64,000 bases of DNA, from IMG/VR virus record IMGVR_UViG_3300026488_000001, positions 24,756 through 88,755 of that record; one strand, given 5' to 3'. Both the position numbers and the translations under genes were made by a program. Each line of letters starts with the position of its first letter. Position 1 is the first letter of the stretch. The stretch comes from a virus. Below are positions 3,213-24,910 of the stretch, piece by piece. The notes below the pieces were generated by a model. The model was not told the DNA's origin. It ran no database searches and saw only the letters and a program-made list of their open reading frames with translations.

Positions 3213-5651
3213 ATGGTAGGGATTGAAGTTGTAAAAAGAGACGGTCGTAAAGAACCTTTCAGTATGGATAAGATTATTAAGATGTATAACTTTTGTAGGC
3301 AAGGTTTAAACATAGACAATGAACAATTTTGGAAAGAATTTCGTTTTACTCTTAAGTCTGGTATTACTACTAAAGAAATTCAACAAAATTTAATAGCTAC
3401 TGCTAACAAACTTTCAGTATCAGATAAAGAGAGAATTAAAGATTACTCTATTCTTGCTGGTAGATTTTATTTACTTGATTGGATAAAAGATATAAGGCTA
3501 CATAGAGAAAAAGAGTATGAAACTCTTACTGATGATTATGGGTTTTTTAAGAATGCTAATGATTGGATTAATCACTTGAAGAAGTATGTAGAGTTAGGTG
3601 TTTATGATGAAAGAATACTCAAAATTTCTAATGACATTCTTAGAAAACTCTATGTGTATGCTAAAAAGGTTCAGTTAGATTATGATTATAACTTCCCTTA
3701 CTTTATGTGGAATGATTTTTACTACCAGGTAGTAAAATTTTCAAAATCATATATTTTGACTTATAACAATAAACCAATAGAAACTTTTGCTGAAGCACTC
3801 CTTTTAATTTCTATTCTTGGATTTCTTCCAGACTATAAGCAAAATAAAGAATTATTTATAAACAATGTTAAACTATTTTATAGACTATTACTTGATAGAA
3901 CGATAATTCCAGCTACTCCTCAACTTTCTAACCTTAGAAGAGCTAAAGGTAATTTATCATCTTGTAATATTCTTGATATTCATGATAATCTTGAAAGTAT
4001 TATGTATTCTTTTTGGCAAGTTGCAGAAATTAGTAAAAGAGGAGGAGGATTAGGTATTTATCTTGGAGAGATAAGACCTAATGGAAGTTATATACAAGGG
4101 AATAAAGGTAAATCAGTATCAGTATTAAAGTGGTGCAAAATACTTGATGATATGTTAGATACAATAGATCAGCTTGGAAAACGTAGAGGAGCTGGTACAG
4201 TAGCTCTTCCTATATGGCATATGGATGTATTGGACTTTATGGCTATGCGTAATCCTATTGGTGAAATCAGAATGAAAATGTTTTCCCTTTATCCTCAAGT
4301 AATAATACCAGACTTGTTTATGGAGAGGGTTAAAGAGAATAGGGATTGGACATTAATAGACCATTATGAATTGAAAATAAAATATGATATTGATTTAGTA
4401 AATTGTTGGGGTAAGGAATTTGAGGAGAATTACATAAAAGCAGAAGAGTTAGTTGAACAAGGTAAAGTAAGAGGTAAAGTTTATAAGGCAAGAGAAATTT
4501 ATAGACAATTAATTAAAAATATTCTTGCATCTGGAATGCCGTATCTATTTTTTGTAGATACAGTAAATCAATACTCTCCCTTTAAGGAACAAATTAAATG
4601 TGGAAATCTTTGCGTGGAATCCTATTCCCCATTTTCTAATACAAATCCTGAAGGGAAAAAACCTGATAATAAGATAGATAACATAGGTTATGTTCATTCT
4701 TGCAATTTACTTTCCCTTAATCTACCTGTACTATATGAACGAGGAATTTTGTTTAATAACAACAAGTTAAAACAGGTAATGTCTTTAGTTGTTAGGTATA
4801 TGGATAACATATTAGATATAGCAGGTCATCCTATAAATGAAATTAAAAGACATAACCAAGATTACAGAACTTTAGGAATAGGTTTTGTAGGACTAGCAGA
4901 TTTACTCGTTAGGAAGTCAATAGACGACAATAAGCTGTATGCCTACAGGATAACTAATAGAAATATAAATAGAGATGAGTTGTTTAACTTGCTTAAGCAG
5001 ATATTCGGTAGGATAGCATTCTATTCTATTAGAACTAGTGTAGATTTGGCTAAAGAGAGAGGTAAAGCAAATAAGTGTAATGAAACTAAATGGAGTGAGG
5101 TATTTTTAGGCCAAATCCTATTTGGAGAAGATTTTGAAGTATCTTCTGCTGTTGAATTTGATGTAGATAGAGGTGAAGTTGATGAACTGGTAAAAGATAT
5201 TCAAAAATATGGGATTAGGAATACAATGCTGTTAAATGCTCCTCCCAATACATCAACATCTATCTATGCAGGAACTACTGCAAGTATTTTCCCTCCATTC
5301 AACCTTATCCAGACTGAAAAGCAATCTACTGGAGTTTATGTAGTATTTCCAAGATATATTACAGAAGGTTGGTTTTACTATGATGAGTATTCAAAATTTA
5401 CTGAACAAGATTTGTATGATGTAATTGAGATAGTTTCATTTATCCAAAAATATATAGATTCAGGAATTTCCTTTGATTATCCAATCAACATAAGAGATGG
5501 TTTCATTCCAAAAGAAGAAGTGGGTAGGATATTAGGTCAGTTTATCTATAAAGCTTGGAAAAATGGAATAAAAGCTCTTTACTACGCTAGAATAGTAGCT
5601 AAAGCAGAAGGAGAACAAACTAAAGAAGAGTGTGTAAGTTGTGCAAATTGA
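3213..5651 (+). CDS. nrdA: class I ribonucleotide reductase alpha subunit with N-terminal ATP cone
   Basis: VVKRDGRKE ATP cone; PATP, LSSC, GNLCVE, SCNL, PNTSTS, LYY and C-terminal CxxC (CVSCAN). Confidence 0.95.
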   Translation: MVGIEVVKRDGRKEPFSMDKIIKMYNFCRQGLNIDNEQFWKEFRFTLKSGITTKEIQQNLIATANKLSVSDKERIKDYSILAGRFYLLDWIKDIRLHREKEYETLTDDYGFFKNANDWINHLKKYVELGVYDERILKISNDILRKLYVYAKKVQLDYDYNFPYFMWNDFYYQVVKFSKSYILTYNNKPIETFAEALLLISILGFLPDYKQNKELFINNVKLFYRLLLDRTIIPATPQLSNLRRAKGNLSSCNILDIHDNLESIMYSFWQVAEISKRGGGLGIYLGEIRPNGSYIQGNKGKSVSVLKWCKILDDMLDTIDQLGKRRGAGTVALPIWHMDVLDFMAMRNPIGEIRMKMFSLYPQVIIPDLFMERVKENRDWTLIDHYELKIKYDIDLVNCWGKEFEENYIKAEELVEQGKVRGKVYKAREIYRQLIKNILASGMPYLFFVDTVNQYSPFKEQIKCGNLCVESYSPFSNTNPEGKKPDNKIDNIGYVHSCNLLSLNLPVLYERGILFNNNKLKQVMSLVVRYMDNILDIAGHPINEIKRHNQDYRTLGIGFVGLADLLVRKSIDDNKLYAYRITNRNINRDELFNLLKQIFGRIAFYSIRTSVDLAKERGKANKCNETKWSEVFLGQILFGEDFEVSSAVEFDVDRGEVDELVKDIQKYGIRNTMLLNAPPNTSTSIYAGTTASIFPPFNLIQTEKQSTGVYVVFPRYITEGWFYYDEYSKFTEQDLYDVIEIVSFIQKYIDSGISFDYPINIRDGFIPKEEVGRILGQFIYKAWKNGIKALYYARIVAKAEGEQTKEECVSCAN

Positions 5652-8158: not shown

Positions 8159-8836
8159 ATGAGAGTAGTTCAGATAGCAGGGAGGAAAAGTTCTGGAAAA
8201 ACTTTTCTTTCTGATTTACTCTTTCATTCTTTTTCAAAAGAAGGTTATAGGATTTATAAGATTAGCTTTGCTTCTAAGTTAAAGTTTACACTTAGAAAGT
8301 TGGGTGTATCCAAATCAGGAATAGTAAAAAATTTATCTTTTGAGGATTTTTATTCAAGCTTACAAGATATATTTTTTACTTACTTTCCAAAGTATATAAG
8401 AAGTCGTTTAATAACTCAGACGATTAAATATTTTTATGAGTTAAGAGATGCTTATAACATTTTCTTTATTCAGAAAGATTTTGAGAATGGATTTAGGAAA
8501 TTAGCACAGTTGATAGGAACTGAAATAGTAAGGGAGATAGATGAAGACTTTTGGGTTAAAGAAGTAGTTAGAAGTATAAAACAAGTAGAAAAATGTGTTG
8601 ATTTTGTTTTGATAGATGACTGGCGTTTTCCTAATGAAGATTTAACTAAATATTTTCCTGAACGGAAAGTATTTAGGATTTTACTTGTAACAAAAGATGA
8701 ACAAAAAGATAATCACATTTCTGAAAACCTTGTTAATCAGTTAAGAGTGGATTTAAAAGTAGAAAGGTATGGGGATAAATATAATCCGGATTTTGAAAAG
8801 ATAATTAGGAGGGTTCGAGGTGAGGAATATACTTAG
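8159..8836 (+). CDS. deoxynucleoside monophosphate kinase (T4 gp1-like)
   Basis: P-loop IAGRKSSGKT, SFA, R..Q..GTE..R, DDWRFPNE. Confidence 0.85.
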   Translation: MRVVQIAGRKSSGKTFLSDLLFHSFSKEGYRIYKISFASKLKFTLRKLGVSKSGIVKNLSFEDFYSSLQDIFFTYFPKYIRSRLITQTIKYFYELRDAYNIFFIQKDFENGFRKLAQLIGTEIVREIDEDFWVKEVVRSIKQVEKCVDFVLIDDWRFPNEDLTKYFPERKVFRILLVTKDEQKDNHISENLVNQLRVDLKVERYGDKYNPDFEKIIRRVRGEEYT

Positions 8837-10670
8837 TCTTTTTGACGGTATTTCTTGTGGTAGGTTAGCATTGGATAGAGCTGGAATTAAATATGAAAAA
8901 TATTATGCAAGTGAAATTGATAAATATGCAATAGCGGTAACTAGGTATAATTATCCTGATACAATATTTGTCGGAGACATTAGGAATCTAAAAGGAGAAG
9001 ATTTTAAAGATATAGATTTAATAATGGGAGGAAGTCCTTGTTTTGCTGAAGGAACAAAAGTTTTGACAAAAGAAGGATATAAAAATATTGAAGATATTAA
9101 ACTAAATGATTATGTCTTAACACATAATAAAAGATTTTGTAGAGTACTAGATATAGGTTATAGATATGCTGAGACTTATATTGTAAAAGCTCAAGGAATT
9201 TTATCTATTGAAACAACTTTTAATCACCCATTTTTAGTTAGAGAAATAAGTTGGAAATGGAATAGCAAAAAAAGAACTAAAGAAAGAGTTTGGTCAGAAC
9301 CAAAATGGAAAAATGCGGAGAAGTTAACAAAAAATGATTTTATAGGAATTCCTATAATTGAAATTGAAGAACTAGCATTGTCACTACAGTTAGCAGTAAC
9401 TAAAGTTTATAAAGTTAATAGTTCTATTTATTTCTATAAAAGACCTAATAAGTATATTATTGAAGGAAGAATTGTAAATCAAAATGATACTTATTTTGTT
9501 GAATTTAGAACAGGCAATAGAAAACAGCGAAGAGCAGTAGTTATAGATGGAATAGTTTGGGTTCCTGTAAAAGAAGTAATAAAAACAGGACTATTTAAGA
9601 AAGTTTATAATTTAGAAGTAGAAAACGATAATACATATACAGCTAATAATGTTATTGTTCACAATTGTCAAAATTTTAGTTTTTCTGGTAAAAAGCAAGG
9701 AATGATAACAAAAGAGAAAATAGAAGTAACTACGCTTGAACAATATTTGGAATTAAAGGAACAAGGGTTTGAATTTGAAGGACAATCTTATCTCTTTTGG
9801 GAATTTGTAAGATTATTAAAAGAAATTAAACCTAAATGGTTTTTACTTGAAAATGTTAGAATGGCCAAAAAGTGGAGGGATGTTATTACAAATGCTTTAG
9901 AAGTAGAACCTATTGAAATTAATTCTGCTTTAGTTTCAGCTCAAAATAGAAGAAGGTTATATTGGACTAATATCCCTGTTAAGGGATTACCAAAAGATAA
10001 AGGTATTTTGTTGAAAGATATATTAGAGGATGAAGTTGATGAAAAATATTATCTTGATAAAGGGATAGAAATTTTAAATAAACAGAAAGGAGGTCTTTGT
10101 AAAGAGATTGGTAAACTTGAAATTAAAGGTTTTGATTGTATAAGAAGAGTTTATAGTCCAGAAGGAAAGTCTCCAACATTGATTGCAATGCAAGGAGGTT
10201 ATAGGCAACCTAAAATAATTGAAGAAAAGTATTACCTATCAGAGAAACATTTTAAAGCATTTTTAAAAAGTTATAAAAACTTTAGTTTAGATGATAGAAA
10301 CAGTAAATCTAAACCGTTACTCGCAACTTATTATAAACAACCACCTCATTGCCCTTATATTTTAGATAAGGACAAATCTCTTTGTATGGATGCTTGTTAT
10401 TACAAAGGTGGGAACTTAAAACAATATTTTGAGAAACATAGAAGACAACTTGTTTTTAAAGTTAATGAAGAAAATAAGGTTAGAGTTAGAAGACTTACTC
10501 CTCTTGAATGTGAAAGACTACAAACTCTTCCGGATAATTATACTCAATATGGTTTATTTGATGACGGAAAGATAAGAAAGATTTCAGACACGCAAAGGTA
10601 TAAAATGATAGGGAATGGTTGGACTGTTGATGTAATAGCTTGGATTTTCTCATTTATAAATGATGAATGA
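8820..10670 (+). CDS. C5-cytosine DNA methyltransferase containing an intein
   Basis: LSLFDGISCG, GGSP/C, ENV, QNRRRLYW, RRLTPLECERLQ, GNGW. Confidence 0.92.
   Translation: MRNILSLFDGISCGRLALDRAGIKYEKYYASEIDKYAIAVTRYNYPDTIFVGDIRNLKGEDFKDIDLIMGGSPCFAEGTKVLTKEGYKNIEDIKLNDYVLTHNKRFCRVLDIGYRYAETYIVKAQGILSIETTFNHPFLVREISWKWNSKKRTKERVWSEPKWKNAEKLTKNDFIGIPIIEIEELALSLQLAVTKVYKVNSSIYFYKRPNKYIIEGRIVNQNDTYFVEFRTGNRKQRRAVVIDGIVWVPVKEVIKTGLFKKVYNLEVENDNTYTANNVIVHNCQNFSFSGKKQGMITKEKIEVTTLEQYLELKEQGFEFEGQSYLFWEFVRLLKEIKPKWFLLENVRMAKKWRDVITNALEVEPIEINSALVSAQNRRRLYWTNIPVKGLPKDKGILLKDILEDEVDEKYYLDKGIEILNKQKGGLCKEIGKLEIKGFDCIRRVYSPEGKSPTLIAMQGGYRQPKIIEEKYYLSEKHFKAFLKSYKNFSLDDRNSKSKPLLATYYKQPPHCPYILDKDKSLCMDACYYKGGNLKQYFEKHRRQLVFKVNEENKVRVRRLTPLECERLQTLPDNYTQYGLFDDGKIRKISDTQRYKMIGNGWTVDVIAWIFSFINDE
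9039..9665 (+). mobile_element. 209-aa cis intein inserted at the catalytic Pro-Cys; no intact endonuclease evident
   Basis: CFAEGT start, TTFNHPF block B, VYNLEVENDNTY...IVHN end; +1 residue is the catalytic Cys (SP|CQNFS). Confidence 0.92.
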
Positions 10671-10678
10671 GGTAGATT

Positions 10679-10861
10679 ATGAGTTGTAATCACCAATGGG
10701 AGGAGGTTAAAGTTAAATCAAAACATTACAGATTTTGTCAAACTTGTTTTAAGATTCAGGTTTACGACAATAGATTAGGTTGGAGACTGTTAACAGATTT
10801 GGAAAAAGTAAAATTGATAAAACTCCTGAAAAAGATAATAAGGAGAAGTAAGTATGGGTAA
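10679..10861 (+). CDS. small Cys/His protein
   Basis: CNHQW...CQTC; SD GAGGT. Confidence 0.6.
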   Translation: MSCNHQWEEVKVKSKHYRFCQTCFKIQVYDNRLGWRLLTDLEKVKLIKLLKKIIRRSKYG

Positions 10862-11378
10862 GAACAAATCTAAAAACAAAGGAAAACAATTTGAAGAAAG
10901 AGTAGCTAAAATTTTTAGAGAATGTTGGCATCTTTCAAAGCATGAATGTCACCGTGCTTTATCATCAGGAACTTATCAAGTAGACTATTCAGATATTGTA
11001 TTCTCTCCAGAAACTATTGAAAGACCTCATCTAATAGTAGAATGTAAAAAACGAAAATCTGTTCCTGCTAATCAACTTTTAACTTTTACTTCAGAATTCA
11101 ACAATTGGTTAGAACAGGTAGAAGAAGCATCAGAGAAATACTTTCAGCATTTTCAAGTTTATCCGGTTTCATTAATAGTTTTTGCAGTTAATAATATGAG
11201 ACCGATAGTAATAGTTGACCAAGAATTACTCTCATTAATTCCATCTAAACCAGAATTTAATCTTTATCTGATAAAGCACCCGACTTCATTAAATTTTTAC
11301 ATAGTGAACAATAACTATATAGGAACTTGGCTTGATCTATTTTTAAACGAATGTCTTCAACCCAAGTACAGATATTAG
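10854..11378 (+). CDS. Holliday junction resolvase (Hjc-like PD-(D/E)xK)
   Basis: KGKQFEERVA...SDI...IVECK. Confidence 0.75.
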   Translation: MGKNKSKNKGKQFEERVAKIFRECWHLSKHECHRALSSGTYQVDYSDIVFSPETIERPHLIVECKKRKSVPANQLLTFTSEFNNWLEQVEEASEKYFQHFQVYPVSLIVFAVNNMRPIVIVDQELLSLIPSKPEFNLYLIKHPTSLNFYIVNNNYIGTWLDLFLNECLQPKYRY

Positions 11379-11505
11379 TAATTATGCAATAGTTTTAATC
11401 AAAATTATTATAATTTTAGAAGCTCTATCTATCTAAGTTAAATAGATATTGCTAATATTTAACTAACGAAATCAGACCCTTCTTATGTTTCCCTCCTTCA
11501 CAAAC

Positions 11506-11534
11506 AGGGAGGCTAATTTAGCCTCCCTTTTCTT
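11506..11534 (+). terminator. intrinsic terminator ending the early/middle block
   Basis: AGGGAGGCT-AATTT-AGCCTCCCT followed by a T-rich run. Confidence 0.7.
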
Positions 11535-11546
11535 AAAGAGGTAACT

Positions 11547-12026
11547 ATGAAGAAACCGATAGTGAAAGTTCAAACTGAGCTTGATAAGCAACTAACCAAT
11601 CTTAGAGATTATCTTGAAGGTAATCAAACTGAATTCAAATTAGACCCGGATTTAGATTCACTTAAACTTGAAGTAGCTTCTTTTACAAGGTTAATGATAA
11701 AGAAGTATATGTCCAGATTAATTAAACTAGGAGAAAAACTTGAAACTTTAGAAGATGAATTACTTTCCAATGCTAATTTCTCTAACTTTATAGAACAAGT
11801 AGAATTCTATAATGGTTTAGTTCAAGCCTATAATTCAGTATTCAACAACCTTAAATCCTTAGTACCAATTTTAAAAGAACTTTCCAAGCTATCTCAATCA
11901 GTAGAATTAAGAGTAGTAGAAACTGAAGAAGATTCTTCTATACTAGAACAATTAGAAATAAACCAAGAGACTAGAAACACTCTAAAAGAAATATTAAGTT
12001 CAGTAGTAGAACACTTAGAAGTGTAA
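11547..12026 (+). CDS. putative terminase small subunit
   Basis: Helical coiled-coil protein directly upstream of terL; positional inference only. Confidence 0.45.
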   Translation: MKKPIVKVQTELDKQLTNLRDYLEGNQTEFKLDPDLDSLKLEVASFTRLMIKKYMSRLIKLGEKLETLEDELLSNANFSNFIEQVEFYNGLVQAYNSVFNNLKSLVPILKELSKLSQSVELRVVETEEDSSILEQLEINQETRNTLKEILSSVVEHLEV

Positions 12027-12055
12027 TATATTAATAAACAAAATCCATTTATTAA

Positions 12056-12137
12056 GCTGGGGCAGGGTAGGAGAGCCTGAGCTGGCCACTCAGGTTAAAG
12101 GGATTCCCAGCGTCCCTTCTCCTACCCTGCAAATCCC
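12056..12137 (+). ncRNA. GC-rich three-way-junction structured element
   Basis: 13-bp outer stem 12062-12074/12118-12130 enclosing hairpins 12075-12095 and 12098-12118, whose loops are complementary. Confidence 0.6.
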
Positions 12138-12161
12138 TAACAATCTAAAAAGAGTTCAATA

Positions 12162-12566
12162 ATGCTAAACCAACTAATCAATAAACTAAAAACCTTACCT
12201 CCTAAAGAGAAGTCTATATTAAAGAGATTAATTGAAAAGTTCCAAAATGACCCCCAATCCTTACTCCAATTGTATGCTGAACTTGAAGGTTATAAAGAAG
12301 TACCAGTAGATATAATAACATTTATAGAACACCCTAAATATTTAGGCCTTTCTTTAGGGGGTAAGATATACCCAGTATGGAAAGAAGCTCTAAAAACAAT
12401 TTTCCCTAACCCATTCTACTCTCCTTATTATGAGTGCATCTACACTGGAGCAATAGGGGTTGGGAAATGTCTTGGAAATCAACAACTTATAGAAGTTTAT
12501 ATGAATGAAGAAGATATAAAGAAATATGGATTAGAAGAGTTCATAATAGAGGAAAGCAATGAGTAA
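12162..12566 (+). CDS. terL: terminase large subunit N-terminal fragment fused to 32-aa split-intein N part
   Basis: PVDIITFIEHPKYLG; Walker A GAIGVGK followed directly by CLGNQQLIEV... (Cys codon at 12468). Confidence 0.88.
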   Translation: MLNQLINKLKTLPPKEKSILKRLIEKFQNDPQSLLQLYAELEGYKEVPVDIITFIEHPKYLGLSLGGKIYPVWKEALKTIFPNPFYSPYYECIYTGAIGVGKCLGNQQLIEVYMNEEDIKKYGLEEFIIEESNE

Positions 12567-13533
12567 TCCCAAGATAGTAATAACAGAGTTTAGAAAACCT
12601 ATTATCTTCATTCATACTCTAGATGAGCTTCTTTTCCATCTAAAAGAAAAGACTAAACATTTTACCCACCCTGTTGTTCGTCTTACTCCTGAGATAATTG
12701 AATGGTTTAACTCACTTCAAGAACCTTTTTATGTTCCAAAAGGTAAATATGCTAAATTCCATACAGTAATATGGAAAGAGGTTTATGGTAAAGAGGAGTG
12801 GTTTAGCTCTCAAATAATAAGAGCAAATTTAAATCCATATTACTACTACATTAGGGGTTATACAGAAGATGAGGCTAAGGTTTTAATGGAGGAAATGCGT
12901 AAAAAGAATAGTGAAGGTGTTTCCAAAGCTTTCTCTTCTATGACTCCAGAAGAAAGAAAAGCTAAATTTGGTGTGTTTTCTGATGAATATCTGAAAAAGA
13001 AGTATGGTAAAGAAGAAGGTTATAAGAAGTGGAAAGAAAGGAATGAAAAGTGGGCTAAGACAATGTCCCAAAAAGAGAATGTTATCCCTTATGGTAGGAA
13101 TGATGAGTATATAGGATTTTCTAAAATATCACAACAACTGTTTGATAAGGTTGTTCAAAGGTTAGCTGAGTACTTCCCTATGGGAGTAATGGGAATTCAA
13201 TATGCTACTTTTAAAGAGGGTAAGAAAGTTCAGGCAAAACATTTTATGGAAAATGAGAAAAGATTTGGTACTAAGTTTGTAGACTTTTATGATGAAATAT
13301 CTAATGTTGTAATAGAGTTTGATGGTGCAGAATTCCACGATGATCCTGAAAGAGATTTAAAAAGATTGGAAGTAATTTATAATGCATCAAAAGCTTTTAT
13401 TCTTCGTATTCCAGAGGATTTACCAAGACGAGTAGGATTTGACAAACTTGCTAGAGTGATAGCAGACTACTTAATAAAAGTGAGAAACTATGGCTTTAAA
13501 GAAACTGAGAATTCCAATAGGGTTACTGTTTAA
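12559..13533 (+). CDS. free-standing Vsr/EDxHD-like homing endonuclease
   Basis: C-terminal VDFYD...VIEFDGAEFHD...RD; overlaps both terL halves. Confidence 0.72.
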   Translation: MSNPKIVITEFRKPIIFIHTLDELLFHLKEKTKHFTHPVVRLTPEIIEWFNSLQEPFYVPKGKYAKFHTVIWKEVYGKEEWFSSQIIRANLNPYYYYIRGYTEDEAKVLMEEMRKKNSEGVSKAFSSMTPEERKAKFGVFSDEYLKKKYGKEEGYKKWKERNEKWAKTMSQKENVIPYGRNDEYIGFSKISQQLFDKVVQRLAEYFPMGVMGIQYATFKEGKKVQAKHFMENEKRFGTKFVDFYDEISNVVIEFDGAEFHDDPERDLKRLEVIYNASKAFILRIPEDLPRRVGFDKLARVIADYLIKVRNYGFKETENSNRVTV

Positions 13534-15448
13534 AAAGTTAGGAATAGAACATAACCCTGATAAGGAAGAGCAAGTTCATAACCCTCCTTGCGATGTTTAT
13601 ATTTCTACTCCAGAAAACAACTTGGCTAAAGTAAATTTCTTTGTAACTAAAGAAACTGAAGTATGTGAATATGAATTAGAGAACGGTTCTACTCTTATAA
13701 CCTCAACTAAACATATAGTACTAGAGAATGGAAAAGAAACTTTCATAGATAAAGCTGAGTCAGTAGATAATGTAGATGGTAAGTCTTATAAGATATGTAC
13801 TAAGAGGTATAGAGGCAAAGAGGTAGCTTATGACTTAAGTATAGACTATCCTCACCTTTACATTACTCCTGATGGGTCTATTCATCATAATACTACGATA
13901 GCAAGAATTGTTTTGCTATATGATCTTTATAAACTTCTCTTATTAAGAGATCCTCACAAAAAATTTAACCTAATACCTACTGATAGAATAGTTATAGCTC
14001 TCTTCAACGCTACATTAGGACTAGCTGATCAGGTTTTATATGAACCATTTAAAAACCTAATAGCCAATTCAGAATTTTTCCAAGAACACTTAGATGCTGA
14101 AAATAAGAAAACATCAGAGATTAGGTTTGTTAACAACATAGGTATAGTAGCAGGTTCAAGATTTACTCATACCCTTGGTATGGCTGTATTTGGAGGTTTA
14201 TTAGACGAAGCTAATTTTGATGTAATATCTAATCAAGCTCAGGAAAGTTATAATGCACTTCTTAGAAGAATGGAATCAAGGTTTGCTCAGGCTGGTGGCA
14301 AACTTCCTGGACATCTTTGCCTTGTTTCTTCTGAAAAGAGTCCTACCGATTTTGTTTCTCAACACAGAGAAAAAGTAAGAGGAAAACAAGGAGTAATAAT
14401 CTTTCAATATCCTATATGGGAAGTTAAAAAACATTTAGGTATCTACTCAGGTAAAACCTTCAAAGTATTTATAGGAGATGAAACTACTGATCCATTCATA
14501 ATAGAAGATGAATCTCAACTACAATATATAGATGAAACCAAAGTAATAGATGTTCCAATAGAGTTAAAAGATAAATTTGAACTAGACTTACATAATGCTA
14601 TAAGAGACTTAGCTGGTTATTCAGTAGGTTCAACTCATAGAATTTTTAAATCTAAAAACATACTCATAAAACAAGCATCCGTTATTAACCCTGTTAACCA
14701 ACAGATAATAAGACTTTCCTTTAATGACAAATCAGATGTCTTAATTAACTACTTCAACATAAACTACCTAAAGAACCCACTCTTTAAAGAATGTCCAAGA
14801 GTTATCCATATAGACCTTTCTATAACAGGAGACAGAACAGGTATAGCTTCAGGTTACATAAAAGGTTACAAAACAATAGAAAGAGTTGATCCACTAACCT
14901 TAGAAAAACATATTTTCTCTGAACCAGAAGTAGTTATTGATTTTGTAACCTATATAGAACCTTTACCAGGAGAGAGAATTCCATTTTACAAGATAAGACA
15001 ATTCATAGTAGATTTATCAAGAATAGGTTACCCAGTAGCAATGGTAACTACTGACGGATTCCAATCTGAAGATATGAGACAACAGTTAACTCAAATGGGT
15101 TATAAAACTGCTTTACTATCAGTAGATAGAACTAAAGACCCTTACCTTTCCTTTAGAGATGCTATATATGAAGAAAGAGTTTGGATACCTAAACACGACT
15201 TACTGATTAAAGAACTATTACATGTAGAAGATATAGGTAAGAAGATAGACCATCCTCAAGAGTTTCCTGATGGTACTAAAGGTAGTAAGGATGGTGCTGA
15301 TGCAGTAGTAGGAGTTTACTGGAACTTGGTAACTAATAAAGATTTAATTAAACAATTAGCTTTCCAAAGAATTCATAAAACAGAAGTCAAAGAAGAAGAA
15401 CAAAGGCAAAGTGTAGCAAATCTTTTTTGGAAAGATCAAATAGATTAG
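13490..15448 (+). CDS. terL: 134-aa split-intein C part fused to terminase large subunit C-terminal fragment
   Basis: LITSTKH block B, YDLSID...SIHHN|TT; Walker B LLDEANF; nuclease motifs HIDLS and KDGADAV. Confidence 0.9.
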   Translation: MALKKLRIPIGLLFKKLGIEHNPDKEEQVHNPPCDVYISTPENNLAKVNFFVTKETEVCEYELENGSTLITSTKHIVLENGKETFIDKAESVDNVDGKSYKICTKRYRGKEVAYDLSIDYPHLYITPDGSIHHNTTIARIVLLYDLYKLLLLRDPHKKFNLIPTDRIVIALFNATLGLADQVLYEPFKNLIANSEFFQEHLDAENKKTSEIRFVNNIGIVAGSRFTHTLGMAVFGGLLDEANFDVISNQAQESYNALLRRMESRFAQAGGKLPGHLCLVSSEKSPTDFVSQHREKVRGKQGVIIFQYPIWEVKKHLGIYSGKTFKVFIGDETTDPFIIEDESQLQYIDETKVIDVPIELKDKFELDLHNAIRDLAGYSVGSTHRIFKSKNILIKQASVINPVNQQIIRLSFNDKSDVLINYFNINYLKNPLFKECPRVIHIDLSITGDRTGIASGYIKGYKTIERVDPLTLEKHIFSEPEVVIDFVTYIEPLPGERIPFYKIRQFIVDLSRIGYPVAMVTTDGFQSEDMRQQLTQMGYKTALLSVDRTKDPYLSFRDAIYEERVWIPKHDLLIKELLHVEDIGKKIDHPQEFPDGTKGSKDGADAVVGVYWNLVTNKDLIKQLAFQRIHKTEVKEEEQRQSVANLFWKDQID

Positions 15449-15559
15449 TAATACTAATTAGGTAAATAGTAATACCAAGTATCACTTCTTTTGATTGATT
15501 ATAGGAAATTTTAAATCAAGATATTACTAAGTATTACGATTTACTTAAAAAGTAATACT
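15445..15559. repeat. 115-bp internally symmetric intergenic repeat, copy 1
   Basis: Near-identical (3 mismatches) to 28555-28669; six AGTAATACT-like boxes. Confidence 0.9.
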
Positions 15560-15572
15560 ACAAAGGAAGATA

Positions 15573-17048
15573 ATGATGGGATTGCTTTCAAAAATATTAA
15601 GTGGACTCGGTTTAGACTTTTATCCTGAGCTTAACGAACAAGTTAATACTACTTCTTACCAACCTAAACAAGACCAAGTTAAATTTGATAAGTCAGATTT
15701 TAGGATTGTATCAGAACTTGTATCTAAGTATCTTGAAGTAACAAAGAACTTTCAAGGATTTTACAAGGAAATAGAAAGAGTAAGGGAAACTTACATAGCA
15801 GAAGTAATACTAGATCAATTTACTTTTGATGCTTTAACTCCAGATGTTTCATCTGACAATATAATAGATATAGTTCCTAACATTGACTCTAAGGAAATAG
15901 AAAAAGGTTTAGAAGATTTCCAAGAAAAGATAAATGTAGACAGATTAGTTCAAGATATAACTCCTGATTTAATAGCTTTTGGAACATACACAGTTAAACC
16001 TGTTATTGAAGAAGGAGAAGGATTAGTAGAAATAAAGGATGAAGAATTACCTTATGAAGTAATTCCGTTCTATAAGGGAACTGAAATTGAATTTTATCTG
16101 AAACTTAATGAGAAAGGACAACCTGAATTTTATCAACCTTATGAGTATGTAACATTTTTTGTTAATGCAAGAAGAATAAGGGTAAGGATTGATAAATCCA
16201 TAATAAGAAACTTACCACAAGATAAACTTGATAAGATTCCTACTTTCCTTAAGGTAGGAACTCCTCTCTTTACAACAGGTGTTATAAAGAAGATTAAAGA
16301 ACTTGACTTACTTGAAAAGCTAATACCTGCATCTAAAATTCAAATGCTTTCTAAAGGCAATGTAGTAGGCGTATATGTTCCACCTTCAATGTCTCCAGAT
16401 GAAGCTCTAAGTTTTGCTAAGCAACTTGAAAGGAAACTCAACTCTTTAGGTATATCAGTAGATAAAGATTTAGATCAACTCTCAATAACTGAAATACTTA
16501 AAGGTGCTGGTAGAATAAAAGTAATACCTGTTACATCAGAAAAAGGTCAAGTTACTAAACTCGATTATAAACCAGAAGAACCAAATGATTTATTAAATTC
16601 TATACAAGATTTAAGACAAGTAATCCTTACTTCCGTTGGGATACCTCCTGAACTCATATTCAATACTGGTAATAATACTAAAGGAGAAACTCTTAAGAGA
16701 TATAGCAGGTATTTAAGGAAACTGAAATATATTCAAAAAGCTATTGTAGATGGATTGAGAGAATTAGTAATGTTACATCTTATCAATAAAGGTATTTCAG
16801 TTACTCCAGAAGACTTTTCAGTTAGATTTGCTAATACTCTCGTAAACATAGATGATTTAGACAAAATTGAGTTTCAAGTTACAGTCGCTCAAAACCTTTC
16901 TGATTTGAATAGATTTGTTCAAGATTTAGGACAAGATGATAATCTTTCTCAGTATGTCGATTATGAAGGTTTTGCTGAATTCTTAAACCAAGAACTTACA
17001 AAGATTGGACTCGACAAGGTGATAAAGTTACCAGGAGAAGAACAATGA
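15573..17048 (+). CDS. portal protein
   Basis: 491 aa directly after terL; DLRQVILTSVGIPPELI helix typical of portals. Confidence 0.75.
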   Translation: MMGLLSKILSGLGLDFYPELNEQVNTTSYQPKQDQVKFDKSDFRIVSELVSKYLEVTKNFQGFYKEIERVRETYIAEVILDQFTFDALTPDVSSDNIIDIVPNIDSKEIEKGLEDFQEKINVDRLVQDITPDLIAFGTYTVKPVIEEGEGLVEIKDEELPYEVIPFYKGTEIEFYLKLNEKGQPEFYQPYEYVTFFVNARRIRVRIDKSIIRNLPQDKLDKIPTFLKVGTPLFTTGVIKKIKELDLLEKLIPASKIQMLSKGNVVGVYVPPSMSPDEALSFAKQLERKLNSLGISVDKDLDQLSITEILKGAGRIKVIPVTSEKGQVTKLDYKPEEPNDLLNSIQDLRQVILTSVGIPPELIFNTGNNTKGETLKRYSRYLRKLKYIQKAIVDGLRELVMLHLINKGISVTPEDFSVRFANTLVNIDDLDKIEFQVTVAQNLSDLNRFVQDLGQDDNLSQYVDYEGFAEFLNQELTKIGLDKVIKLPGEEQ

Positions 17049-22334: not shown

Positions 22335-23270
22335 ATGATAAAGTTTAGAGACCCAAACGACAAAATATTATTCCTTTCTGAAGCAGGCTTGTTAAACCAA
22401 TATGAACCTTTTGATGATGTAGAAAAACTCTCACAGGAAGCTATCGAAGAAATCTGGCAAGGTATTATTAAACGTCGTAAACCTTTAAAGAAGAGATTAA
22501 AAGACAGGAAGCGTTCTAAGATTCAAAAACAGAATTGGAAGAAATACAAAACAAAATATCTTTTGGCTTTAAGAAAGTGGCATCGTTCTGTAAGTGGTAA
22601 AAGGTTTCATAGAGCTTTAGGTAGGTTTTTAGCTTTAAGACTAAACAGAGAATCTTATAACCTTGATGTTAATGAAAGGTTTGATTTTCTCAAGTTACTA
22701 TCCAGTCTTAAAACTCATTGGTATATAGAGGGAGTTTATTACAAACCACTCTTAGAAGAAGTAGAATATGAACTCTTTACTGAAGAAGTATTACCACTAA
22801 TAGAAGAGATTGAAAAGAAAGTTTTAATTGAGAATAAACTTGATAAAGACGATATTGAGTTTCTATTTGGTATCTTTTACGAATCTAAAGAAAGATTTGT
22901 ATTAGCGGTTCAAGAAATTGTAAACAGAATAAAACAAGGTAGGTCACTTTCCAAGAGTTGTATAAGTGATGTTATCAAGTATGTAACTGATAACAAAGAA
23001 AAACTAAGAGAAGCAATTATAGGTTGGTTAGAGGAAGAAACTTTTGGAGGTTATCATTCAGTATTGCTTTCTCAAAGTTTAAGGAAAGTAATTTATGATC
23101 CAAATGAGAAATATTTTGTTAAGAAACAAGGTGACACATTTATCTATAAGCAAGGAGATTCAGAAGTAGTTTTTAAACTAAAATACTTACTTCCTGTAAA
23201 ACACCTTTTAGCTTACTTTGAAGGTGAAATCAATAATCTTTCTGATAAAGTTTATGAAATAGTTGATTAA
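22335..23270 (+). CDS. hypothetical head-region protein with basic segment
   Basis: ORF upstream of the protease; Lys/Arg-rich residues ~45-105. Confidence 0.6.
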   Translation: MIKFRDPNDKILFLSEAGLLNQYEPFDDVEKLSQEAIEEIWQGIIKRRKPLKKRLKDRKRSKIQKQNWKKYKTKYLLALRKWHRSVSGKRFHRALGRFLALRLNRESYNLDVNERFDFLKLLSSLKTHWYIEGVYYKPLLEEVEYELFTEEVLPLIEEIEKKVLIENKLDKDDIEFLFGIFYESKERFVLAVQEIVNRIKQGRSLSKSCISDVIKYVTDNKEKLREAIIGWLEEETFGGYHSVLLSQSLRKVIYDPNEKYFVKKQGDTFIYKQGDSEVVFKLKYLLPVKHLLAYFEGEINNLSDKVYEIVD

Positions 23271-24676: not shown

Positions 24677-24910
24677 ATGATTAAGGAACTTAATAAGTTA
24701 CTTGAGGAATTTCAAAGAAAAGATGAATATGCTATGAGAGTTACTGAAATTCCCAAGTTCTTTGAAAAGATTAAGAAACAACTTGATAAGGTAACTGATT
24801 TACCTGAAGACTTGTTTAAAATTGATATGATTCAGAAAGATATAGATAAAGTGAAACAAGAACTTGATAAGATTTGGCAGAAGTTTAAATCAGGCAAGTA
24901 TGAAAGATAA
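24677..24910 (+). CDS. small leader-bearing head protein
   Basis: Starts MIKELNKLLE. Confidence 0.6.
   Translation: MIKELNKLLEEFQRKDEYAMRVTEIPKFFEKIKKQLDKVTDLPEDLFKIDMIQKDIDKVKQELDKIWQKFKSGKYER

Follow-up and report, generated by a model that had tools for sequence, protein, structure and literature searches.

The large terminase (TerL) gene of a hydrothermal-vent phage is very probably a fractured gene: a class-1 intein sits between the Lys and Thr of its Walker A motif (K↓T; the arrow marks an intein junction throughout) and is itself broken at the S1 position by a gene of the EDxHD/Vsr-like endonuclease kind. The locus lies at 12162–15448 of the window, the 64,000-nucleotide stretch analysed here, which corresponds to positions 24756–88755 of the IMG/VR record IMGVR_UViG_3300026488_000001. 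It consists of three overlapping plus-strand open reading frames (ORFs; 12162–12566, 12559–13533 and 13490–15448), which hold the following features:

12162..12467, + strand: N-terminal extein (N-extein) of TerL, residues 1–102, ending in the Walker A residues G-A-I-G-V-G-K with the Lys codon at 12465–12467 (ORF, tblastn)
12468..12566, + strand: IntN, the N-terminal half of the intein, 32 aa plus stop, with Cys1 at 12468–12470 (sequence, relatives, docking model)
12559..13533, + strand: predicted homing endonuclease gene, 324 aa, free-standing, EDxHD (Vsr-like, DUF559) (weak Pfam match, family profile)
13490..13891, + strand: IntC, the C-terminal half of the intein, 134 aa, with block B at 13700–13714 (DnaE intein alignments, relatives)
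13892..15448, + strand: C-terminal extein (C-extein) of TerL, 518 aa plus stop, with Thr+1 at 13892–13894, completing the Walker A motif GK-TT (tblastn, PHROG, fold matches)

The initial annotation had described a first ORF ending in GAIGVGK followed by an acidic IntN, and a downstream ORF with a basic start, a TSTKH block and an intein end at SIHHN↓TTIAR; all of these positions hold. ORF 12162–12566 (134 aa) runs to GAIGVGK and continues into a 32-aa tail that opens with Cys and has a net charge of −7. ORF 13490–15448 (652 aa) starts with MALKKLRIPIG, has a charge of +4 over its first 20 aa and leaves the intein at SIHHN↓TTIAR, between residues 134 and 135. Absent from that annotation was the 324-aa endonuclease ORF which fills the space separating the two halves. 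It begins with an ATG that shares nucleotides with the IntN stop (ATGAGTAA), and its final 44 nt run into IntC. Co-transcription of the three ORFs is probable. A promoter and terminator scan returned sites no more numerous than in shuffles, and the best of them, at 13356–13383 upstream of IntC, is not taken as evidence.

Both exteins match large terminases of known phages. In tblastn searches of phage records, the C-extein aligned with the TerL of Ralstonia phage RP13 at 41% identity (E 8e-100), with similar scores for coliphage IME392, Thermus phage phiLo and Rhizobium phages, and the N-extein matched the same TerL genes, ending exactly at residue 102–103. The N-extein aligns to residues 5–91 of the IME392 TerL, which end in GLGK↓S, and the IME392 protein reads GGIGLGK↓STAAK across the junction. 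Residue 102 and the first residue of the C-extein correspond to adjacent codons in the uninterrupted TerLs (IME392, 62099/62100; phiLo, 57049/57050), and the same adjacency to the codon was found in the TerLs of EP_H11 and Ab1-TPeters. Given this contiguity, trans-splicing would rebuild a TerL of 620 aa (102+518), as had been proposed. The assignment to TerL relies on the combination of a Walker A ATPase with a C-terminal nuclease and on homology to annotated TerLs; PHROG terminase matches were obtained for the C-extein. Pfam and PHROGs barely detect TerL or intein in the window ORFs, and tblastn and profile searches were needed. Logan contigs of three runs match the window without difference across the N-ORF, the endonuclease and IntC (for example run X2, record 12, 12144–14514); since these independent contigs cover all three parts unchanged, the layout is not an assembly artefact.

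An intein-less allele from the same vent metagenomes marks the same boundaries. A relative of about 85% identity carries an uninterrupted terL from which exactly 1424 nt, 12468–13891, are absent (Logan contigs). Its alignment with the window breaks off at 12346 and resumes at 13950, leaving 179 letters in between, equal to 121 nt of N-extein and 58 nt of C-extein, and a second joint, from 12441 to 13919, agrees with the intein-less allele. The word depth of this allele is 132 in run X2 and 963 in run X3, versus about 32–48 for the window phage, so that the intein-less relative is 3–30 times commoner than the window phage in these two runs. It constitutes a natural 'empty site' population for homing. 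With the uninterrupted TerLs and the intein-less allele joining exactly at Walker A GK↓T, the earlier claim of a genuine fractured TerL carrying an atypically split intein at this site is supported.

The source phage genome is complete (88,755 bp, GC 31%): the first 77 nt of the record are repeated at its end, and it is circularly permuted or terminally redundant. The phage was present at a depth of 16–48 in three metagenome runs of the year 2018, labelled 'hydrothermal vent metagenome', which may represent a single campaign. The head and packaging module is full, and no second TerL was found in the complete genome, the copy split by the cassette being the sole one. Because TerL is single in a complete genome, DNA packaging should depend on trans-splicing, in line with the initial annotation.

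The element between the exteins is a class-1 intein of the HINT fold, with Cys1, a terminal His-Asn and Thr+1, and is predicted to splice. IntC residues 53–134 align with residues 53–136 of the Npu DnaE intein (E 2.6e-5 from the single sequence), and a profile of six IntC family sequences improves this match to E 2.2e-7 and also finds the Ssp DnaE, gp41-1 and Pho RadA inteins. Cys1 directly follows Walker A Lys102 and is kept in the IMG/VR loci L004, L007 and L008 and in the fused relative P0005. Block B of IntC, T71-S-T-K-H75, aligns with TKDH of Npu DnaE, and the basic head of IntC carries β3-α1 (KLRIPIGLLFKKL). Block F supplies D115 and H122, and the intein closes with the penultimate His133 and the terminal Asn134, followed by Thr+1; over 126–150 relatives, H75, D115, H122, H133 and N134 vary little or not at all, H75 being invariant in 150. 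Pfam Intein_splicing matches 65 of the 126 family members, the window IntC itself falling below the Pfam thresholds. A contiguous 175-aa intein occupies this K↓T site in the fused relative P0005 (796 aa), whose identity to the split protein P0007 is 75%. A Foldseek search with the AlphaFold2 (AF2) model of P0005 (pLDDT 74) returned the mini-inteins 5bkh, 5o9i, 7oec, 4e2t, 8cpo and 4kl5 (E 1e-5 to 7e-4), and the same model matches the large terminases of HK97 (6z6d, 4.6e-12), T4, D6E and Sf6.

The same fractured TerL is carried by the IMG/VR loci L004–L009. The related N-ORFs end in G(I/T)GK↓C plus 26–27 residues with the motif (S/N)-(E/D)-E-D-I-x-x-x-x-L-E-E-(F/Y), and the related IntC ORFs all open with M-K-K-I-K-I-P-I-G-x-L-(F/Y), homologs starting at the same residue. 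L004, L007 and L008 combine an IntN of 26–27 aa with IntC ORFs in the layout of the window. The spacer between the halves varies, from the endonuclease gene of the window to 3.4 kb in L004, 106 nt in L008 and nothing in the fused P0005; the L008 spacer has no likeness to the P0005 linker. At L004 (2214–6001), the halves are separated by an endonuclease-like ORF of 628 aa, the remnant of another IntN tail (4504–4674, ending in KIVYSMSDEDIEKYELSEYMED) and a DUF285 repeat protein, contents which look like repeated invasion of the same spot. A conserved ORF of 91–95 aa stands directly upstream of IntC in L004 (5646–5924), L005 (922–1206), L006 (334–621) and L007 (5725–6000) and is absent from the window and L008; it has no Pfam family and may be either a passenger or a leftover of the mobile cassette.

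The 324-aa ORF at 12559–13533 lies in a frame that differs from both neighbours and is not fused to either intein half. We assign it provisionally to the EDxHD/Vsr-like homing endonucleases. The window protein matches Pfam DUF559 with an E of 0.0075, below the cut-off, and three homologs (P0010–P0012) pass both DUF559 and REase_MTES_1575. A phmmer search of its single sequence against the PDB gave no meaningful match. A profile of four sequences found a single PDB match, 3R3P, the catalytic domain of I-Bth0305I (E 0.006). Residues D242, E253, H260 and D266 are invariant in the family alignment and are aligned with the D196, H213 and D222 positions of I-Bth0305I, residues which were mutated or named catalytic by Taylor et al. 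(PMC3239194). The N-terminal half of the window protein has a homolog in the ORF that takes the corresponding place in L004 (E 6e-12), and the enzyme is weakly collinear, catalytic region included, with that of a further locus, L011. The N-terminal halves of 12559–13533, L004:2679–4565 and L011:1514–2992 share an aromatic-(W/Y)-x-x-(R/K)-G-(Y/F/L)-(S/T)-(E/D)-x-(E/D)-A repeat, probably a NUMOD-like DNA-binding repeat.

The intein is broken after strand β2 and before β3/α1, at S1, as judged from insert-free relatives, docking contacts and the register of the profile on Ssp DnaE. About 12 residues of IntN form the canonical β1-β2 (CLGNQQLIEVYM), followed by an acidic helix-strand extension (NEEDIKKYGLEEFIIEESNE); the motif is conserved in L004, L007, L008 and P0005. 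The contiguous relatives P0060 and P0071 have no insert and follow the pattern GK↓C-L-D-x-x-E-x-I-x-I-K-I-(turn)-x-x-(L/I)-x-I-x-(D/E)-(L/I)-(F/Y), the canonical β1-β2-turn-β3-α1, comparable to CLSYETEILTVEYGLLPIGKIV of Npu DnaE. Because these relatives place the break of the TerL branch within the β2/β3 turn, the split corresponds to S1. The turn holds an insert of 20–30 aa in the TerL branch, with the gene break inside it, and 10–70 extra residues in other members, so that relatives differ in loop length, with values of 0 to about 70 aa. In the family profile, IntC positions 27–80 align to Ssp DnaE residues about 24–80.

A docking model of IntN with IntC reached an ipSAE of 0.74, versus 0.45 for the best control, a mark attained by 51 of 78 solved complexes and by 2 of 108 mismatched pairs. 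The runs have at least 85% of their contacts in common, with a partner pLDDT of at least 59. In the model, IntN E9–M12 pair with IntC K4–I8 and D35–I38, and IntN I26–I27 form an edge strand beside IntC 5–8. Such a pass indicates likeness to solved inteins rather than binding, as the halves of a split domain can pass that way. The charge complementarity noted in the initial annotation extends to the relatives, in which net charges run from −5 to −8 for IntN and from +1 to +5 for the IntC head.

The position of the break could also be read differently. With the same architecture and a later, S2/S3-like break, the IntN tail EEDIKKY-GLEEFIIE would be the canonical α1 and β3, and the IntC head (KLRIPIGLLFKKL ... 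CDVYIST) an extra, duplicated helix-strand module. Counted from Cys1, the tail indeed fits the block A spacing without gaps (turn at 13, I17-x-x-hydrophobic20, G/x-x-x-hydrophobic25–27), such spacing is seen in the methylase intein of the window (CFAEGTKVLTKEGYKNIEDIKLNDYVLT), and both helix-strand modules are conserved in the family. We nevertheless consider a later break improbable. In P0060 and P0071, β2 runs straight into (L/I)-x-I-x-x-L-(F/Y), the opening element of IntC, and the length of the loop varies from nothing to about 70 aa; the docking model pairs IntN β2 with IntC 4–8 and 35–38, leaving I26–I27 an edge strand only, and the profile alignment of IntC 27–80 to Ssp DnaE also counts against it.

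From the boundaries, catalytic residues, family, presence/absence polymorphism and split position, as given by sequence and comparison, we propose how docking, splicing and homing would proceed at the S1-split terL. Three proteins would be made: TerL(1–102)-IntN(32), the endonuclease and IntC(134)-TerL(103–620). The basic IntC head would capture the acidic IntN tail, and IntN β2 would insert between IntC β3 and β4, completing the HINT fold. Splicing would then run through an N-S acyl shift at Cys1, transesterification to Thr+1, cyclisation of Asn134 and an O-N shift, the product being a 620-aa TerL with an intact GAIGVGKTT P-loop. The endonuclease would most likely cut the intein-less terL of co-infecting relatives, and repair would copy the whole IntN-endonuclease-IntC cassette.

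Two outcomes other than protein splicing were considered. Reconstitution of a protein through split-intein halves is conceivable without a covalent joint, and the halves might associate without splicing, TerL acting as a non-covalent two-chain enzyme; or the gene might be dead and the phage defective. Either is very unlikely: all class-1 splicing residues are kept and are invariant over relatives of 36–60% identity, an unspliced 166-aa HINT domain would interrupt the P-loop between Lys and Thr, and the genome is complete, with a full head and packaging module and a single TerL, the phage reaching a depth of 16–48 in three runs. Removal at the RNA level would require a group I or II intron carrying the endonuclease ORF. 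In favour of this explanation, introns are known in the TerL genes of SPO1-like phages. Group I introns can also carry EDxHD endonucleases (I-Bth0305I, PMC3239194). The probability of an intron here is nevertheless close to nil, as no Rfam match at E≤1 was found over 11500–16000, the endonuclease ORF overlaps both flanking ORFs and leaves no non-coding core, the break is flanked by intein blocks with exteins exactly contiguous, and the spacers of relatives at the same point range from 0 nt (fused) through 106 nt to 3.4 kb. Trans-splicing of an S1-split intein remains the preferred reading, and some details weigh against it: simple motif spacing also lets the IntN tail be read as canonical α1-β3, the endonuclease is assigned on weak scores (E 0.006–0.0075) with a poor AF2 model (pLDDT 40), the P0005 AF2 model has low confidence at both splice junctions (residues 73–101 and 254–269), and the ribosome-binding site before IntC is weak (AAAGTGAGAAACTATG).

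To place the intein in a broader context, the IntC profile was run against 1.84 billion cluster representatives, which gave 280 matches at E≤1e-3 and 93 at E≤1e-10. Among 156 matches inspected, IntC stood at the start of the protein in 116 (median 134 aa) and was internal in 22. Of the 116 split relatives, 87 have Thr at +1, 27 have Ser and 2 have Cys. Their exteins come from P-loop NTPases: AAA/gp44 clamp loaders, DnaB, ResIII/DEAD helicases, RecA/UvsX, PhoH and ClpB-like proteins. No relative was found when the profile was scanned over 185,579 species genomes. One of the matches was examined in its genomic context: in L011 (1217–4176), from an unrelated IMG/VR phage, a gp44-type clamp-loader gene is fractured at Walker A by the same type of cassette, in the order N-ORF ending in GVGK↓C plus 28 aa, 492-aa EDxHD endonuclease, IntC ORF. 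About 45 relatives of the L011 clamp loader match only from residue 119 on and appear to be without an intein.

We tentatively suggest that the window intein is one member of a very large, barely described family of S1-split Walker A inteins, of at least 280 clusters at 50% identity. Such inteins might move, together with EDxHD genes, from P-loop to P-loop among unrelated phage ATPases (TerL, gp44-type clamp loader, DnaB, RecA/UvsX, PhoH, SF2 helicases), and the acidic IntN extension of the TerL branch might serve as a capture element. If true, the intein of this vent phage could serve as a heat-tolerant, orthogonal ligation tool. The thermostability that had been envisaged is unsupported beyond the origin from a vent metagenome; the IVYWREL index gives about 67 °C for the window phage and about 52 °C for a coliphage control locus, being noisy and biased by AT-richness.

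To our knowledge, few inteins with a natural, atypical split have been characterised (AceL-TerL, GOS-TerL, VidaL and PolB16). Their appeal lies in the short IntN, which is accessible by peptide synthesis. To these the present locus adds a hydrothermal-vent phage intein with clear boundaries, Cys1/Thr+1 and an S1 split, and its natural comparators (split, fused, intein-less and insert-free contiguous) tell core residues from the putative capture extension. If the proposed family holds, phage metagenomes would commonly contain S1-split P-loop inteins paired with EDxHD endonucleases, a point relevant to the way in which inteins come to be split. The locus would also represent one more essential packaging motor held hostage by a selfish element.

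The phage carries a second intein elsewhere in its 89 kb, two in all. Positions 8820–10670 of the window encode a C5 cytosine DNA methyltransferase with a contiguous 210-aa intein at about 9039–9668, inserted after GGSP and ahead of the motif IV Cys (C|FAEGTK ... VIVHN↓CQNFS); Pfam finds DNA_methylase in two pieces together with Intein_splicing on this ORF. Two genes upstream of terL, positions 10854–11378 match Pfam PDDEXK_15, a phage putative PD-(D/E)XK endonuclease (E 5.5e-17). No tRNAs were found in the window. A weak IntC-like tblastn match at genome positions 22579–22656 falls in an ORF without intein features and was dismissed as chance. In two cultured phages, Bacillus phage HSE3 (L002:3436–6909) and Streptococcus phage GXN1 (L003:3944–4882), TerL is fractured elsewhere, at DVF↓C, by a conventional split intein, and the HSE3 dCTP deaminase gene also holds a mini-intein; the GenBank labels for the HSE3 and GXN1 pieces read 'intein splicing region protein', 'terminase' or 'hypothetical'.

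The arrangement at 12162–15448 is a textbook 'fractured gene'. Fractured genes were described by Dassa, London, Stoddard, Schueler-Furman and Pietrokovski in 2009 (PMC2677866), mostly in phages and in one case at a terminase locus, with Vsr-like endonucleases in half of the loci. As in the window, the host gene is spread over two ORFs of one strand, the intein halves flank the break, and a free-standing gene of the Vsr-like (later EDxHD) or GIY-YIG kind lies between them. The terminase locus of that study is gp17-like, whereas the window intein interrupts K↓T of Walker A in another lineage of TerL, and the window differs further from the described loci in having its break near the N end, at S1.

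In nature, an S1 split has so far reportedly been found only in VidaL and PolB16, AceL-TerL and GOS-TerL being split at S2 after α1 (PMC13014065, 2026). VidaL and PolB16 OarG (PMC13014065, PMC10189870) resemble the window intein in a split right after β2, a short IntN and a long IntC of 130–170 aa. Their IntN measures 15–16 aa, whereas that of the window has 32 and those of its relatives 26–27; the window IntN is longer because the conserved acidic helix-strand extension follows β2. Contrary to the initial annotation, IntN is not short by current standards, with 32 aa against 15–16 elsewhere and only about 12 residues being canonical HINT. PolB16 uses Ser1/Ser+1 in a PolB gene, in contrast to Cys1/Thr+1 in TerL; its structures (8cpn/8cpo) are one of many mini-intein Foldseek matches, with no sequence match, and with VidaL the comparison covers split position and the sizes of the halves.

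AceL-TerL, GOS-TerL and the consensus Cat intein (6DSL) share with the window a large terminase host, an IntN of 25–37 aa, a metagenomic phage origin and value as tools. The kinship with these atypical TerL inteins that the initial annotation implied does not stand. AceL-TerL and GOS-TerL have Cys+1 and an S2 split, in contrast to Thr+1, the Walker A site and the S1 split of the window, and neither the IntC single sequence nor the family profile matched 6DSL at E≤1 or E≤10, against 2e-7 for the DnaE inteins. Judged by published features and the 6DSL search, the window intein is neither allelic nor close to AceL, GOS or Cat.

The insertion site itself is shared with the mycobacteriophage TerL1-a inteins (Kelley et al. 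2016, PMC5050341), which occupy a 'classic P-loop' site between an invariant Lys of Walker A and a nucleophilic Thr. Because Cys1/Thr+1 at the P-loop is a classic intein site (PMC5050341), the Thr nucleophile is not special, contrary to what had been suggested. The TerL1-a inteins are contiguous and reside in Terminase_1-type actinophage TerL, whereas the window intein is split, belongs to another TerL lineage and is accompanied by a free-standing endonuclease. For that enzyme, the comparison is with I-Bth0305I (3R3P, PMC3239194), which likewise has a C-terminal Vsr-like catalytic domain with Asp/Glu/His/Asp and N-terminal repeated short helix motifs. I-Bth0305I is encoded in a group I intron of recA, in contrast to the position of the window enzyme between intein halves, and the similarity is weak (E 0.006). 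Taken against these systems, the fractured-gene kind is already known, and the S1 split with its acidic extension, together with the size and host range of the family, is what is worth keeping.

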